From positions 1,376,001 to 1,440,000 of the forward strand of contig CBDCDZ010000004.1 of NCBI GenBank assembly GCA_965215565.1: 64,000 nt of DNA, given 5' to 3'. This document shows positions 35,024 through 40,751 of the stretch, piece after piece; positions within the stretch are counted from its first letter, which is position 1; every line of letters starts with the position of its first letter. The notes beneath the pieces are model-generated. The model ran no database searches. It was not told where the DNA came from and saw only the letters and a program-made list of their open reading frames with translations. The DNA is from Trueperaceae bacterium. GTDB lineage: Bacteria > Deinococcota > Deinococci > Deinococcales > Trueperaceae. The translations under genes and the position numbers were made by a program.

Positions 35024-35203
35024 TGCTCAGTAGTCCAGCGTGATACCCTTTCCGGTTGATTCCTAAAAGAATCAACCCAAGCGTAGCGAGTAGAAACAGC
35101 GACGGATTCCGGTGAGTAACGGAATCCGTATGAGATATACCTCTTGGGTCTCGAGACAATTTTCATCTTGAGATTTCGGCTAGAATCCTATGCTGGGGCA
35201 ATT

Positions 35204-35539
35204 ATGAATAGACCTATGAACAATCCTCCAAACCTAGACCACTTCCGGGGCACGCGGCGCAGCATCTTAACGCTTATATGCGGCGTCGCGATCGGCTTCG
35301 CGGCGAGTTCCGACACACCGCTTCTCTTGGGCGTCGCCTGGCTCTTCGCCGCGTTCGCTTACGCTGAAAAAAGCTACCTTGACGAGCAGTACTCGAGGGC
35401 CATCACACTGTGGACGCTCGGCGTCGCCGGCTTAGCGGGAGCGCTGCTGGTGCAGCAGCAGTATCTGGCGGGAGCCATACTTGGCGCGTTAGCGGCAGGT
35501 TACGCGCTGCAAGCCTGGCGGGAGAGGGCGCAAGTGTAG
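35204..35539 (+). CDS. Small membrane protein
   Basis: About four hydrophobic segments; start uncertain (35204 or 35216). Confidence 0.65.
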   Translation: MNRPMNNPPNLDHFRGTRRSILTLICGVAIGFAASSDTPLLLGVAWLFAAFAYAEKSYLDEQYSRAITLWTLGVAGLAGALLVQQQYLAGAILGALAAGYALQAWRERAQV

Positions 35540-35544
35540 CAAAT

Positions 35545-35572
35545 GCAGGGGCGATTCATAAGTCGCCCCTGC
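35545..35572. repeat. REP-like palindrome, copy 2
   Basis: GCAGGGGCGATTCATAAGTCGCCCCTGC; compensatory changes relative to the 32261 copy. Confidence 0.7.
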
Positions 35573-35655
35573 ACCGCGCAATCCCTCGTTAGGGAAGATA
35601 ATTGTGCGAAATTCAAAGAGGTTGAACAATACCCGCTTAATGAAGATTGTGGTGC

Positions 35656-35684
35656 TTGACACTCTACGTGAGGTTTGCTACACT
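35656..35684 (+). promoter_or_regulatory. Sigma70-type promoter of the RNA array
   Basis: TTGACA-17 nt-TACACT, ending 8 nt before the first Y-like RNA. Confidence 0.85.
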
Positions 35685-35692
35685 TCTAATTC

Positions 35693-35760
35693 GCGGACCG
35701 AAGAGACTTCGTTACCTGACTTTCCCTCAGACCTAACCCGAAGTTTCATGCCTCGTCCGC
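35693..35760 (+). ncRNA. Y RNA-like unit Y1 (minimal, no tRNA module)
   Basis: GCGGAC-C-GA/TC-GTCCGC bulged helix; AGACTTCG/CGAAGTTT stem; CCGA-N9-GTTACC; pyrimidine-rich loop. Confidence 0.75.
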
Positions 35761-35978
35761 CAATCTTTGAGAAAGGGAGACACTCACCGCTTGTGAGGTC
35801 GTGGACGCTATGAATAAACATTTTGTACAACCCGAACACGGCTCCATCCTGAGCGCCGAGTCCACCTGGTTACTCCAGCGTGATTCGCGGCGAGCATAAG
35901 GATATTAAGGTGAGTTGGACCCTTCGAATACTCTTAACCCCTAAAAACTGAATAGTACTCACCTTAATTTGGAGCAAT

Positions 35979-36115
35979 AAACGGGCCGAAGATGTTTCGT
36001 TATCTTGACTATGGAGTCCTGCAGGTTCAAATCCTGCCTCATCTTCGGATGAGTGGCGGAACTGGTAGACGCGAGAGAGCTTAGCTCTTATCGAAACGTC
36101 ATCCCTTGCCCGTTT
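35979..36115 (+). ncRNA. Y RNA-like unit Y2 (YrlA-like, permuted class II/Leu-like tRNA module)
   Basis: AAACGGGC-C-GA/TT-GCCCGTTT; T arm GCAGG-TTCAAAT-CCTGC; acceptor CTCATC-TTCG-GATGAG; D arm GGCGGAACTGGTAGACGC. Confidence 0.88.
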
Positions 36116-36231
36116 TTATAAGCAGTCCTACTGCATGTCTTGAAGACAATGCGAGTGCCACCACTGAATAAGCAGATCGGTGTGGCGCTTCTCATCTCAA
36201 AAATATGCGTAGGCAGAGGATACTTATGTCT

Positions 36232-36479
36232 GAAGGAGTTGCCTAAATGGGAGGGCGCAGCAAAAACATTCGGAGGCTGTCGCAAGCAGCGGGAGTACGA
36301 CTTGCTCTTTGGACGGGCGCATCGCGCCTAAACGTCTGAAGTGTGAGGTGCACGCCACAAGGTTTACAGATTGCACCTATAGCGGCCTACGGAAGTAGGT
36401 GGGACAAAGCAGCAAGGGAAGCAGGTTTTCCAAGGTGTGCTTTGCGTACTCTGTGCGGGTTCGAGTCCCGTCTCCTTCA
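36232..36479 (+). ncRNA. tRNA-like RNA with a very large structured insertion
   Basis: Acceptor GAAGGAG/CTCCTTC; D arm GCCT-AAATGGGA-GGGC; T arm GCGGG-TTCGAGT-CCCGT; ~195 nt of multi-hairpin sequence between the D and T arms. Confidence 0.75.
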
Positions 36480-36532
36480 CTACTAGCACTGAGGTTTTTC
36501 GTCTTCTATTACGCTTATGGAGTTATTCGTCA

Positions 36533-36708
36533 GATGGACCGAAGAGGTTTCGTTGTCGCACCCGTCAGGATTATGGTTCGCGGCTGAGCGGTAGGGCGCT
36601 GCAACTCGAGCAGAACCAAGTAAGGCGAAAGGCTGCGCTTGCCCTAGTTGCAGAGAGGGTTCGAGTCCCCCAGTTCACAATCTAGCGGAGCTTCACACCT
36701 TGTCCATC
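36533..36708 (+). ncRNA. Y RNA-like unit Y3 (non-permuted tRNA-like module)
   Basis: GATGGAC-C-GA/TT-GTCCATC; CCGA-N9-GTTGTC; CTGCAACT/AGTTGCAG stem followed by T-loop GGG-TTCGAGT-CCC. Confidence 0.75.
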
Positions 36709-36720
36709 CTTATTACGTTT

Positions 36721-36793
36721 GGTGCCATCGTTTAGCGGTCTAGGACTCGAGCCTTTCACGTTCGCAACAGGGGTTCAAATCCCCTTGGCACTA
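36721..36793 (+). tRNA. tRNA-Glu (TTC)
   Basis: GGTGCCA/TGGCACT; anticodon arm CGAGC-CT-TTC-AC-GTTCG; T arm AGGGG-TTCAAAT-CCCCT; CCA not encoded. Confidence 0.9.
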
Positions 36794-36810
36794 TCAAACT
36801 CCTCGCTTAT

Positions 36811-36942
36811 ATGTGGGCCGAAGCGTGTCCGTTATCGACTTCTAATCGGCGGGTCGCGGGTTCGAATCCTGCCTGACACCATGCGTGGTGTCAGTAGCTC
36901 AGTGGCAGAGCAGCTTTCGGGCATACACAATCTTGCCCACAT
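36811..36942 (+). ncRNA. Y RNA-like unit Y4 containing a circularly permuted tRNA-Arg(TCT)-like module
   Basis: ATGTGGGC-C-GA/TT-GCCCACAT; CGA-CT-TCT-AA-TCGGC; T arm GCGGG-TTCGAAT-CCTGC; acceptor CTGACACCA-TGCG-TGGTGTCAG; D arm GCTC-AGTGGCA-GAGC. Confidence 0.9.
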
Positions 36943-36946
36943 CTTT

Positions 36947-37020
36947 AGCGCCATCGTCTAACGGCAAGACTCGAGACTTTGACTCTCGTAATAGAGGTTC
37001 GAATCCTCTTGGCGCTTCCA
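36947..37020 (+). tRNA. tRNA-Gln (TTG)
   Basis: AGCGCCA/TGGCGCT; CGAGA-CT-TTG-AC-TCTCG; T arm AGAGG-TTCGAAT-CCTCT; encoded CCA. Confidence 0.93.
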
Positions 37021-37034
37021 TATTCTTCTCGCCT

Positions 37035-37108
37035 GGTGCCATCGTCTAACGGCAGGATTCCTGGTTCTTACCCAGAGGATAGAGGTTCGAATCCTCTTGG
37101 CACCACCA
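37035..37108 (+). tRNA. tRNA with CTT (Lys) anticodon on a Glu/Gln-type body
   Basis: GGTGCCA/TGGCACC; CCTGG-TT-CTT-AC-CCAGA (C27-A43 mismatch); 4-nt variable loop; encoded CCA. Confidence 0.82.
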
Positions 37109-37109
37109 C

Positions 37110-37237
37110 AACTAAGCCGAAGGGCGTTCGTTATCGGTCAGAGCCCCCGAAAGGGGAGGTCGCTGGTTCAACTCCAGCCTAGCCGCAAGGCTCAGTAGCT
37201 CAGGGAAACAACGCGAATGTCCACCCCTTGCTTAGTT
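37110..37237 (+). ncRNA. Y RNA-like unit Y5 (tRNA module opened in the D loop)
   Basis: AACTAAGC-C-GA/TT-GCTTAGTT; TCGGTCAGAGC, CCCC-GAAA-GGGG, AGGTC, T arm GCTGG-TTCAACT-CCAGC, AGCC-GCAA-GGCT, TAGCTCAG. Confidence 0.87.
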
Positions 37238-37248
37238 TTTCTATCAAG

Positions 37249-37490
37249 AGCGAGCCGATTGGGTTTCGTTATCGCCTGTCACGCTGGCGGTGCAGGTTCA
37301 GGAGCCTTCAGCAGCAGATGCTAACTGGTTATAGATGCGCTGGGTTCATAACGGGATGCTACCCGTCGCGTGGACTGCTCCCGCTAGATGCTGATGACTC
37401 CTTCCCACCTAGCGAGAGCTAGTCGTCTAATGGTTAGGACACCAAGTCGGAAGCAATCTCGACATACCGGAGCCCGCCACCTTGCTCGCT
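37249..37490 (+). ncRNA. Y RNA-like unit Y6 with a permuted tRNA-Asp(GTC)-like module and ~100-nt T-loop insertion
   Basis: AGCGAGC-C-GA/TT-GCTCGCT; GC-CT-GTC-AC-GCTGG; CTAGC-GAGA-GCTAG; D arm GTCT-AATGGTTA-GGAC then A-CCA. Confidence 0.82.
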
Positions 37491-37499
37491 TTATTTTGT

Positions 37500-37601
37500 A
37501 ACGGGCCGACGCAGTTCGGTTATCACAGGTTCGATTCTTGTTGGACCCATACGCGGGTCCACGCCTATGGAGGCAAGCTCGAGCTGTCCCTCTTGCCCGT
37601 T
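37500..37601 (+). ncRNA. Y RNA-like unit Y7 (classical YrlA architecture)
   Basis: AACGGGC-C-GA/TT-GCCCGTT; T arm ACAGG-TTCGATT-CTTGT; TGGACCC/GGGTCCA; D-like GCCT-ATGG-AGGC. Confidence 0.85.
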
Positions 37602-37662
37602 TATCTTACGCGGATAGGTCGCTGAGTTCTTCTCAAATCCTTTCACCTGTTCGCTTTATAAA

Positions 37663-37776
37663 GGCAGCTTCTAAAGAATAACTGAGGCTGTATCAAGCAG
37701 GCATCATCTTTTGAGCGTGCGTGCTAACTGATGTTCTTTTCGGTGAGCGCGTTTGTGACCAGATGCTACCTGCTTG
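37663..37776 (+). repeat. Conserved structured element, copy C (rsr leader)
   Basis: ACTGAG-N10-GCAGGCATCATC..GTGCGTGCTA..GGTGA..ACCAGATGCTACCTGC; closing stem CAAGCAGG/CCTGCTTG abuts the rsr RBS. Confidence 0.72.
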
Positions 37777-37792
37777 AGGGAGGTGCTCAACG

Positions 37793-39385
37793 ATGCAAAA
37801 GTTCCATAAGCTCTTCTCACCCACCAAGACGGCGCAAAACCGTCCGCTGGATAGGTCGCAAATCAAGAATAGCGCGGGCGGGTACGTCTGGGCGCTGGAC
37901 CCGTGGAAGAGGCTCGAGCGCTTCCTCATCTTGGGGACGGAGGGCGGCACCTTTTACGTCCGCGAAGCGCCTCTTACGGTAGAGAACGCTGAAAACGTCG
38001 TCAAGCTCCTCACGGAAGATGGTGTCCGCGTCGTCGAGCGAGTCGTAGAGGTCAGCACGCAAGGTCGCGCCCACAAGAATGACCCGGCGCTCTTCGCCCT
38101 GGCGCTCGCGTTCACGGTAGGTGACGTGGACACAAAGCGTGCGGCGGAAGCGGCGCTGCCTAAGGTGGCGCGTACCGGCACGCACCTCTTCACCCTCATG
38201 ACCTACGTGAGCGAGATGCGCGGTTGGGGTCGTGTGCTGCGCCGTGCGGTGGCGGGTTGGTACGCCACTAGGGACGTGCAAGCCCTCGCGTACGGCGTGA
38301 CCAAGTACGCTCAGCGCGGCGGCTGGACGCACCGAGACGCCCTGCGTTTGGCGCACCCTAAGACGGATGACGCCGAGCGTGACGCGCTGTACCGTTACGT
38401 CACGGGGCACGGCGACAAGCTGAAGGAGGTGAGCGGCGAATGGGTTGACTACTTAAAGGCAGTCGAAGCAGTGAAGACCGAAACGGACGTGCAAGCGGTC
38501 GTGGACGCCATCACGCGCTACAACTTGCCGAGAGAGGTCATCCCCACCGAGATGCTCCGCAAGAGCGAAGTCTGGTCAGCGCTCCTGGCGCGTATGCCTA
38601 TGACTGCGACGATTCGCAACCTCGCGACGATGACCCGCGTCGGCTTGCTCACATCCATGAGTGAAGCTGCGGACGTTGTGACAGAGCGCATCACGGACGA
38701 AAAGGCGCTCCGCAAGACAAGGGTCCACCCCATCGCCATCCTCGCCGCGCTGATGACCTATAGCGCAGGGCGCGGCGCAAGAGGTAAGGGAACGTGGGAG
38801 CCCGTGCAAGAGGTTGTGAACGCACTCGACACCGCGTTCTACCGTTCGTTTGAGAACGTCGTGCCGATGGGCAAGCGCATCCTCATGGGGCTGGACGTAT
38901 CCGGCTCGATGACCTGGGGTGAAGTGGGTGGCGTACCCGGTCTGACGCCCCGCGTTGCAAGCGCTGCGCTCGCGCTGGTCACGGCGGCGACTGAACCTAA
39001 GCACACATTCATGGCGTTCTCGCATGAACTCGTGCCCGTCAAGATTTCGCCGCGTCAACGGCTGGACGACGTGGTGAAGCAACTGGACAGGATGCCTTTC
39101 GGCGGGACGGACGCCTCGCTGCCGATGCTTTACGCGGCGCAGAAGGGGCTCGAGGTTGACGCCTTCGTCGTCTTGACCGACAGCGAGACTTGGTTCGGCA
39201 AGCAGCACCCTGCCGAAGCGTTGCTCGAGTACCGCCGCAAGACGGGCATCCCTGCCAAGCTCATCGTCGTCGGGATGCTTGGCAACCGTTTCACGATTGC
39301 GGACCCGTTTGATGCTGGCATGTTGGACGTGGTCGGGTTCAGCACGGATATACCCACAGTTATTGCGGATTTCATTCGCAAATAG
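37793..39385 (+). CDS. rsr: Ro60 ortholog (TROVE + vWA domain Y RNA-binding protein)
   Basis: NSAGGYVW, RLERFLILGTEGGTFY, GWGR, RGGWTHRDALRLAHPK, MPMTATIRNL, MIDAS DVSGSM, GGTD, TDSET, DAGMLDVVGF. Confidence 0.97.
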   Translation: MQKFHKLFSPTKTAQNRPLDRSQIKNSAGGYVWALDPWKRLERFLILGTEGGTFYVREAPLTVENAENVVKLLTEDGVRVVERVVEVSTQGRAHKNDPALFALALAFTVGDVDTKRAAEAALPKVARTGTHLFTLMTYVSEMRGWGRVLRRAVAGWYATRDVQALAYGVTKYAQRGGWTHRDALRLAHPKTDDAERDALYRYVTGHGDKLKEVSGEWVDYLKAVEAVKTETDVQAVVDAITRYNLPREVIPTEMLRKSEVWSALLARMPMTATIRNLATMTRVGLLTSMSEAADVVTERITDEKALRKTRVHPIAILAALMTYSAGRGARGKGTWEPVQEVVNALDTAFYRSFENVVPMGKRILMGLDVSGSMTWGEVGGVPGLTPRVASAALALVTAATEPKHTFMAFSHELVPVKISPRQRLDDVVKQLDRMPFGGTDASLPMLYAAQKGLEVDAFVVLTDSETWFGKQHPAEALLEYRRKTGIPAKLIVVGMLGNRFTIADPFDAGMLDVVGFSTDIPTVIADFIRK

Positions 39386-39533: not shown

Positions 39534-40751
39534 ATGATGCAAGTAGATAGCATTTCTGTCTTCGGTCAACACGACGAAAAGACGTTGAAGCAGCTTAAAG
39601 ATGTAGCGACGAGGGCTGAGAAAGTCGCCCTCATGTCAGACGGACACTTGGGCTACATCATGCCCATCGGCGGCGTTGCAGCGTACGACAATAAGGTGTC
39701 TGTCGCAGGAATTGGATTTGATATCGCGTGCGGCAATGCCGCGATTAAAACGGATTTGACCCTGGGGCAACTCGAGCCCAACCTCACCGCGCTAGCCGAC
39801 GAAATCGCTGAGGTCATCTCCTTTGGCGTCGGACGCAAAAACACCTCAGATGACGCATCTGTAAACGATCCCCTTTTTGAGGACGCTGCTTGGGAAATAG
39901 TTCCAACGAAGAAGGGCGTGCGCCAGCGTCTCTTGAACAAGGCGCGTAACCAGCTTGGCACGGTAGGCTCGGGCAATCACTATGTGGACGTCTTTGCAGA
40001 CGAGGAAGGCGTGATTTGGGTTGGGGTGCACTTCGGCTCTCGCGGCTTCGGTCACACTATCGCCTCCACCTTCATGGCACTTCATCAGGGCGGCACCTGG
40101 AGCGATAAGGGTAAAGAAACCGAGGCACTTCTCAGCTTGGACGACGAGTTGGGCAAGGATTACTGGGCGCTCATGACGCTCGCGGGGCGCTACGCTTACG
40201 TCGGGCGCGAGTGGGTCGCGCGCAAGGTCGTGGAGATTTTGGGCGGGACGGAAAGAGAACTCGTCCACAACCACCACAATTACGCTTGGAAAGAGGTGCA
40301 TGACGAGCGTGAACTGGTTGTGGTGCGCAAAGGGGCGACGCCTGCGTTTCCCGGACAGAAGGGTTTCGTCGGCGGCAGCATGGGCGATGACGCTGTCATC
40401 TTACAAGGCCGAACGGATGCAGATGACGGGACAAAAGCCAAACAAGAAGCCGCCCTCTACTCCACCGTGCACGGCGCAGGTCGCGTGATGAGCCGCACGC
40501 GGGCGGCGGGTAAATGGGACTATAAGCGTAAGGTCCGCAAGACCGAAGGGCTGATTTCGCAAGCGATGATGAAGGCGTGGCTCGCCGAAAAAGAGGTCAT
40601 CTTGCGCGGCGGCGGCTTGGACGAAGCGCCGCAAGCCTACCGCCGTTTGCCTGACGTATTGGCGTCGCAGGGCGCGACTGTGGAGGTCTTACATACGCTC
40701 ACGCCGCTCATCGTGGTGATGGCGGGGGCGAATGAGTTTGACCCATATTAA
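39534..40751 (+). CDS. rtcB: RtcB family RNA ligase
   Basis: DGHLGY-MPIGG, GFDIACG, QLGTVGSGNHY, HFGSRG, HNHHN, RKGATPA, HGAGR, DEAPQAY. Confidence 0.96.
   Translation: MMQVDSISVFGQHDEKTLKQLKDVATRAEKVALMSDGHLGYIMPIGGVAAYDNKVSVAGIGFDIACGNAAIKTDLTLGQLEPNLTALADEIAEVISFGVGRKNTSDDASVNDPLFEDAAWEIVPTKKGVRQRLLNKARNQLGTVGSGNHYVDVFADEEGVIWVGVHFGSRGFGHTIASTFMALHQGGTWSDKGKETEALLSLDDELGKDYWALMTLAGRYAYVGREWVARKVVEILGGTERELVHNHHNYAWKEVHDERELVVVRKGATPAFPGQKGFVGGSMGDDAVILQGRTDADDGTKAKQEAALYSTVHGAGRVMSRTRAAGKWDYKRKVRKTEGLISQAMMKAWLAEKEVILRGGGLDEAPQAYRRLPDVLASQGATVEVLHTLTPLIVVMAGANEFDPY

Follow-up and report, generated by a model that had tools for sequence, protein, structure and literature searches.

The closest described systems are the Y RNA loci of Deinococcus radiodurans and Salmonella. 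In D. radiodurans, Y RNAs and transfer RNAs (tRNAs) lie upstream of rsr, the gene of the Ro60 orthologue Rsr, together with RNAs named a, b and d; Yrn1 and Yrn2 keep both strands of the bulged-C helix, with CCGA, 9-10 bases and RTTAYY, and these Ro-binding modules have been called metazoan-like (Chen 2014, PMC4201824). YrlA RNAs (RF02553) have a T arm before a D arm and a closed acceptor stem, carry a GNCGA motif and a conserved YUAY after the stem, and lie next to rsr and rtcB (PMC4201824; 10.1101/312249); Y RNAs have been called modular (Wang 2018, 10.1101/312249). In Salmonella, Rsr, two Y RNAs and RtcB are encoded in one operon, rsr-yrlBA-rtcBA, for which it has been proposed that the Y RNA's tRNA-like domain plays the part of a decoy (Hughes 2020, PMC7790460). 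Here we describe seven Y-like units upstream of rsr in a 64,000-nt stretch of a Trueperaceae genome (GCA_965215565.1, contig CBDCDZ010000004.1, positions 1,376,001 to 1,440,000), referred to below as the window. All seven units are, with a probability of roughly 0.8, genes for Y RNAs, the stem of which likely binds the Rsr encoded downstream and the tips of which likely offer tRNA-shaped surfaces to enzymes of RNA repair or decay under stress.

An earlier note on this DNA had proposed that CCGA-N9-GTTATC recurs in all seven units. A pattern search of the window finds CCGA-N9-GTTRYC at 35698, 35986, 36539, 36818, 37117, 37255 and 37506, all on the forward strand and spanning 35698-37524 (~1.8 kb); the seven units are thus present at the sequences that were quoted, with spacing N9 in 7/7, while the exact hexamer GTTATC holds for only five of them (GTTACC in unit 1, GTTGTC in unit 3). 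One further match (49032, minus strand) lies outside the array, and the expectation by chance is a mean of 0.48 per window with a maximum of 2 (100 shuffles). On its own, the CCGA-type motif has a low specificity, as is evident from 47 matches genome-wide versus 21 for the reversed pattern. A stricter pattern matches 67 of 301 Deinococcota genomes (18 for its reverse), and since none of five single-match genomes checked has a TROVE gene, such single matches are likely due to chance. A look-alike at 35856 was tried as an eighth unit and rejected, as it has no 3' partner and only 3/7 of the terminal helix.

Each unit has a 7-bp terminal helix that ends at the first C of CCGA, followed by a bulged second C, after which GA pairs with UU (UC in unit 1). 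The first base of N9 (N1) is unpaired and faces five or six bases, and an upper helix of 9 bp is made by N2-N9 together with the G that opens the hexamer, so that the claim that the N9 segment pairs with a 3' strand stands for all but its first base. The flanking helices were also said to differ in sequence while keeping their pairing, which is borne out by the numbers: 110 of 112 cells are paired, 13 of 16 pairs are changed on both sides, and none of 5000 swaps of 3' strands among the units reaches the observed pairing. The best partner of every 5' strand is its own 3' strand (15-16/16 vs at most 14). As the 3' strands were picked for pairing, a selection-aware null was run, in which shuffled downstream DNA passes the same search in 1-15 of 500 trials per unit. 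In the whole genome, 322 of 29,030 RCCGA sites pass for the stem and 11 for stem plus pentamer (UUAYC, the hexamer without its G), seven of which are the array in the window. In all seven units a long stem joins the two ends, with the C of a GNCGA motif bulged out and another bulge facing it, and all lie 0.2-2.1 kb upstream of rsr on the same strand, i.e. well within the 4 kb of a broad definition of Y RNAs. Compared with shuffles, the free energy is low for units 1, 2, 5 and 7 (z -4.2, -3.3, -2.5 and -3.6).

The gene that follows, rsr (37793..39385, + strand), encodes a Ro60 orthologue of 530 aa with TROVE and vWA_Ro60 domains, which scores 441 bits to human RO60 and 433 bits to D. radiodurans Rsr. 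It keeps the segment KYxQRxGW...LRLxH when aligned to Xenopus and human Ro60, with K171, R175 and H188 invariant in 28 relatives; we take these to be the Y RNA-binding residues of Stein 2005. Its nearest relatives are from Trueperaceae. Its likeness is only ~44-46% to Deinococcus-type Rsr and 56-61% to proteins from Chloroflexota, Armatimonadota and elsewhere. Downstream lies an RNA ligase gene, rtcB (39534..40751, + strand; PF01139, E 1e-67), giving the operon order promoter, Y units with tRNAs, rsr, rtcB. Compared with the Salmonella operon (PMC7790460), the RNAs are upstream of rsr, number seven instead of two, and enclose tRNAs, while the promoter is of sigma-70 type and neither rtcA nor rtcR was seen adjoining the operon.

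Tips were compared across genomes (G numbers) and rsr loci (L numbers), in a census of 183 units. The earlier note regarded the stem as a constant chassis with interchangeable cargo; exchange indeed occurs (see below), but the cargo is not arbitrary, since six of the seven tips contain parts of a tRNA. Unit 1 (35692..35761, + strand) is the exception, being a short Yrn2/YrlB-like RNA that has the features of this type, i.e. a long hairpin, the Ro helix and a small pyrimidine-rich loop. The order T arm, closed acceptor stem, D arm, as in YrlA, is found in units 2, 4 and 6 and in reduced form in unit 7, and not in units 1, 3 and 5. In unit 2 (35980..36114, + strand; YrlA model 21 bits, positions 30-81), a small arm precedes the T arm and closed acceptor stem, which are followed by a Leu-type D arm and an extra hairpin. 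Unit 4 (36812..36941, + strand; Rfam YrlA 37 bits, E 6.5e-6, against a gathering score of 69) has a complete permuted tRNA, with an anticodon arm (UCU loop), T arm, closed acceptor stem of 7 bp and D arm. Unit 6 (37249..37490, + strand) combines an Asp-like GUC arm, a T arm and a Glu/Asp-type D arm, and unit 7 (37500..37601, + strand; weak match to RF01656) a T arm, closed acceptor stem and small D-like hairpin. A true anticodon arm ahead of the T arm, which distinguishes units 4 and 6 from YrlA, occurs in 45 loops across the loci with 20 different triplets. Other differences from YrlA are that the 3' strand of the Ro helix is kept, and that the spacing is N9 compared to about 12.

The remaining two tips follow other plans. 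Unit 3 (36533..36708, + strand; GTTGTC) has a long tip in ordinary tRNA order as judged by eye (D-like arm, extended anticodon stem, T arm), of which only the T arm was found by computation. In unit 5 (37111..37236, + strand; seven orthologues) the tRNA is opened in the D loop, with GNRA tetraloops capping both the anticodon and the acceptor end, a layout that is absent from those described for YrlA and that was not found in a literature search (Sim and Wolin 2018, Sim 2020 and Boccitto and Wolin 2019 lay outside it). In its alignment 94.5% of the cells are paired and 14 of 34 pairs are changed on both sides (3/5 in the T stem), while the D stem is invariant; the compensatory changes are in the T stem and both Y helices. 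This type makes up 7 of the 183 units, all Trueperaceae-type. Plain hairpins lacking a tRNA tip account for 81 of the 183.

In the unit 4 family (window 36870-36896 and orthologues), the 7-bp acceptor stem has an extra G-C pair, as in tRNA-His, and the anticodon loop varies between UCU, UUU and CCU. Because the 7-bp acceptor stem is followed by an encoded CCA in four orthologues (L030, L031, L032 and L037), unit 4 may be a substrate of RNase P, by analogy with the YrlA of Mycobacterium smegmatis. The T loop of unit 6 is broken by a dispersed repeat of ~97 nt with inverted ends (37303..37399, + strand), which is missing in the orthologue of the sister genome G001. Five insertions of this 75-100 nt repeat are in T loops of tRNAs or Y RNAs, just after GGTTC, in four related rsr loci (the window, L030 at 5191, L031 at 5562, and two places in L037). 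The genome has 11 copies of the left end, only one after a T-loop-like sequence, and the leader of rsr contains a related piece near 37690-37775.

In G001, stems are kept at six positions and tips differ at positions 2 and 3, in agreement with the modular picture of the earlier note. Orthologues were found for units 1, 2, 4, 5 and 6, the tip of unit 1 being identical in 22/22. At position 2, 43 of 48 stem bases are kept with a different D-arm type; at position 3, the terminal helix is kept (14/14) below an upper stem like that of unit 7 and a 42-nt tip. Tips are therefore exchanged between sister species on a constant stem, for which G001 is direct evidence.

The units could also have been misread across their joints, being in fact RNAs that start with a whole tRNA in which the Y stem is a closed hairpin between the D and anticodon arms. 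This form exists: a scan of 196 loci gives 42 rows (one duplicate) in 35 loci, among them L024:5794-5913, L152:3507-3629, L085:457-571, L025 and L036, and unit 4 is a circular permutation of the tRNA-first unit of L025, where a cut at the acceptor stem lifts the score from 91 to 132. The beginnings of three tRNA-first units in G084 resemble those of RNAs a, b and d in Chen 2014 Fig. S3 (PMC4201824), for which these units are candidates. None of the seven units in the window passes the test, however; the own downstream strand beats that of the previous unit (16 vs 11 of 16 for units 6 and 7), unit 1 starts right after the promoter, and units 3, 4 and 5 are bounded by other genes, which makes a misreading very improbable. 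G084 has three such permutations and the window none; its tips are mostly in YrlA order.

With Y RNA genes that start at the stem as the preferred reading, the next matter is how far this stem is distributed. An initial tally of 36 loci (75 of 101 stems at N9) was biased, 20 of the loci having been picked for the motif; the unbiased tests are 80 metagenomic and 80 viral loci chosen by Rsr alone (some contigs being in both), in which stems were found without requiring the pentamer, and a model termed R1. In the metagenomic loci the pentamer is at offsets 9-11 in 36 of 91 stems on the rsr strand (32 at exactly N9) vs 0 of 32 on the opposite strand, and in the viral loci in 42 of 74 vs 1 of 17, mostly at N9. 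R1 was built from 24 hairpins, three of them relatives of unit 1 and none from the window; covariation is seen in 15 of 18 pairs, and the score of 0.787 drops to 0.12-0.19 when slid. It gives 90 matches in 90 sources, 86 of which are in rsr-oriented loci and all of these on the rsr strand, and it matches 43 of the 80 metagenomic loci, always on the rsr strand (five of these loci supplied training rows). Of ten Rsr clusters looked up, two bear a taxon name, Armatimonadota and Candidatus Kaiserbacteria. Four of the seven units in the window are found strongly (50.4 bits for unit 1). In eight named phage and plasmid loci, R1 found no stem in five (L217, L219, L220, L223 and L224). The stem is thus present beside rsr in many bacteria and phages, where Rfam gives no annotation. 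Among cultured actinophages, Gordonia phage Forza (L221) has about seven GTTAY-type Y stems, and Mycobacterium phage ET08 (L222) and L220 have several, all unannotated. Arrays of several units are common; the five in R. etli are of a divergent type.

A number of results weigh against a functional array of seven Y RNAs. Units 3, 6 and 4 fold no better than shuffles (z -0.1, -0.8 and -1.9), unit 3 having the least well supported fold of all, and the minimum-energy fold of unit 4 lacks the upper stem; with R1, unit 4 gives a weak match (E 0.17) and units 3 and 6 give none. All units stay below gathering for every Y family, Rfam has no match to unit 1 at E 10, and at gathering Rfam gives only three tRNAs in the window. 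Unit 3 has UUGUC as its pentamer, and the unit at position 3 of G001 has CTGA in place of CCGA. Some members (unit 3, G001 position 3 and unit 6 with its T-loop repeat) may hence be decaying. Taken further, several units would be non-functional debris of a shrinking tRNA/Y array, as relatives have 15-26 tRNAs at the same locus, unit 6 has suffered an insertion, the folds of units 3, 4 and 6 are weak and the units differ between sister species. With the stems almost fully paired and compensatory changes in all seven, and with G001 orthologues for units 1, 2, 4, 5 and 6, this is clearly improbable, and working Y RNA genes remain the preferred reading.

Binding of Rsr by the units is likely by analogy with D. 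radiodurans and Salmonella, and the same two systems suggest how the locus might work. The array would be transcribed as one polycistronic stress RNA and cut at the embedded tRNAs, after which Rsr would bind and stabilise each Y RNA through the 5' GCCGA strand of the bulged helix. The tip could then tether Rsr to PNPase (the gene of which is present in the genome), as in the Rsr-Y-PNPase complex RYPER, help or decoy tRNA repair of the RtcB type, or meet a nuclease. The 9-bp upper helix may act as a ruler, setting the distance between the bulged C and UUAYC at about one helical turn. UUAYC itself could touch Rsr at a second place and also serve as a hinge by which the tip is aimed, which is favoured by the pentamer being unpaired, not depending on the tip and keeping a distance of about one turn to the bulge; the odds of this ruler and contact are about even.

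That UUAYC has no conserved pairing partner is apparent from 13-33 of 81 per position in an extension of the helix. An alternative that is only slightly less probable is that the RNAs are bound by Rsr while UUAYC is untouched by it and serves as a hinge in the structure, as a signal for processing or as the place where another factor acts. The published Ro60 site comprises the lower bulged helix only (PMC4726728), and Chen 2014 (PMC4201824) names G7-A12 as protected, both of which speak against a second contact; a conserved UA makes a 30-degree kink in the YrlA crystal (10.1101/312249), the motif of nematode stem-bulge RNAs (sbRNAs) is important for their activity in DNA replication, and ROP-1 precipitates were not found to contain most sbRNAs (Kowalski 2015, PMC4450293). 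In unit 4, moreover, the last bases of the pentamer begin the anticodon stem. As a general rule, a mere start of the anticodon stem was rejected, since the register varies among units and many units are plain hairpins. It is in these same plain hairpins that the pentamer is kept at a fixed distance, which argues for a contact, as does its retention from phages to vertebrates, where Ro60 is presumably the only obvious common partner. In a machine-read Fig. S2 of Chen 2014, marks for 'reduced cleavage with Rsr' stand beside U and A of the UUAC of Yrn1; given the uncertain layout of the figure, this is possible protection by Rsr.

The likeness to animal Y RNAs, for which the earlier note had pointed to human Y1, is confirmed by the vertebrate Y RNA consensus (RF00019), which reads CCGA, nine bases, GUUAU, and the units correspond to its layout position by position; unit 7 matches the nematode sbRNA model (RF01656) at 19.5 bits (E 0.88). 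CCGA, the nine-base upper stem and UUA(U/C)C are shared with both families by six of the seven units (UUGUC in unit 3), whereas the upper stem has the metazoan GUG-CAC or UG-CA motif in 0/7, covaries freely except at N7, and is topped by tRNA-like tips, and the units stay below gathering (38 bits). Column N7 is A-U or U-A in 77 of 81 and its neighbours vary freely; its counterpart in the vertebrate GUG is the U. RF01656 is matched by seven hairpins from bacteria or phages, in six of 13 loci picked for such stems, and among these L061:116-183 is the only one above gathering (39.8 bits). The Yrn1 family RF01053 has no match at E 10 in 35500-37800, among the matches listed once five overlapping ones of the same clan are left out (control L036, 163 bits). 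G084 matches the probes published for Yrn1 and Yrn2, which are proven Y RNAs and have the same stem there: Yrn1 (RF01053, 163 bits) has N10-GTTACT, Yrn2 has N9-ATTATT, and there are three more copies.

A metazoan-like layout was therefore rightly noted, but it is not unusual: the motif is common at rsr loci, and Deinococcus Yrn RNAs, already published as metazoan-like, carry it, so that this genome is no special case. Five supplements of Chen 2014 (PMC4201824) contain no mention of Truepera, Thermus, Meiothermus or Oceanithermus. In the literature searched, including passages of PMC12135203, PMC7790460 and PMC8058203, there is no statement of a fixed spacing with UUAYC in bacteria, part of which may be covered by reviews from Wolin. 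Not found in print are thus the fixed spacing plus UUAYC in bacteria and phages, the tip opened in the D loop, and cargo swaps between sister species.

The spacing of the stem appears to follow the closeness of Rsr to human RO60: with 441 bits the window has N9, as has L061 with 432, phage ET08 (341) has N9-10, and R. etli (37) has an offset of at least 12 with CTAC. This suggests a relationship, albeit one of four proteins without a phylogeny, which counts against building much on it. Because spacing tracks similarity to RO60 in these cases, UUAYC may be what appears in YrlA as YUAY and in vertebrate Y RNAs and nematode sbRNAs as UUA(U/C)C, and it would mark the Y type whose Rsr is closest to animal Ro60. 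Tentatively, and at somewhat less than even odds, this can be extended to an unannotated bacterial and phage Y family with the full animal ground plan that travels with the Rsr clade nearest animal Ro60 and is ancestral to animal Y RNAs and sbRNAs, with UUAYC as an overlooked second Ro60 contact and tRNA tips in at least four arrangements, one of them new, swapped as a kit of decoys or adaptors for RNA repair. Alternatively, the likeness could reflect convergence on what Ro60 binds instead of descent of the RNA, seeing that only about 12 fixed bases are common, that GUG-CAC is absent in the units, and that bacterial Y RNAs have been called not homologous to vertebrate ones (Kowalski and Krude 2015), the last of which also counts against the ancestry proposed here. 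Since the agreement extends to the lower stem, the bulge opposite, the length of the helix and the unpaired pentamer, and divergent Rsr proteins pair with divergent spacing, convergence is fairly unlikely.

Around the units, a predicted sigma-70-type promoter (35656..35684, + strand; TTGACA, 17 nt, TG + TACACT; 10/12) ends eight bases ahead of unit 1, and boxes like these are also found before the first unit of L028, L031, L032, L037, L019 and L034. Just upstream is an open reading frame of 131 aa (35144-35539), hydrophobic, conserved in G001 and lacking a Pfam match. The spacer 35762-35979 is structured, contains a long inverted repeat near 35905-35970, and is kept in G001 and L037. Between the units are tRNAs with anticodons UUC (Glu; 36721..36793), UUG (Gln; 36947..37017) and CUU (Lys; 37035..37108), all on the + strand. 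They share a common body type (36721-37108): as read from the sequence, the CUU tRNA has a body like those of the adjoining Gln and Glu tRNAs, and it is the sole tRNA-Lys(CUU) called in the genome. In five genomes of family f5 (L022, L023, L025, L026 and L027), 15-26 tRNA genes and up to seven Y stems lie by rsr.

The array also contains a tRNA- or tmRNA (transfer-messenger RNA)-like RNA of ~250 nt without a Y stem (36231..36483, + strand), with an acceptor stem, D-like arm and T arm, in which ~180 nt replace the anticodon loop. Its scores as tmRNA are weak (16-21 bits). An 82% copy is present in G252/L031, and 3'-half matches (73-78%) were found in 12 Deinococcus-family genomes among 251 searched, where six loci examined have no Y stem within 1.5 kb. 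RNAs of this type are 205-250 nt long, unannotated, and have an invariant core in the place of the anticodon loop, for which there was no match in viral contigs. A likeness to 23S rRNA was rejected, as the similarity to the genome's own 23S does not exceed that of shuffles, 107 of 200 of which score equally high.

A family in bacteria and phages that shares this spacing and motif bears on two questions, how animal Y RNAs arose and what their UUAUC loop motif does. As it covaries freely outside the motif, it provides the alignment depth to define what Ro60 reads, and since D. radiodurans carries the motif, this can be tested directly in that organism. Motif plus stem furthermore give a search rule for Y RNAs that are missed by Rfam, in about half of the sampled rsr loci, while unit 5 offers a natural uncharged, non-decoding tRNA core with which to ask which enzyme the tips engage.

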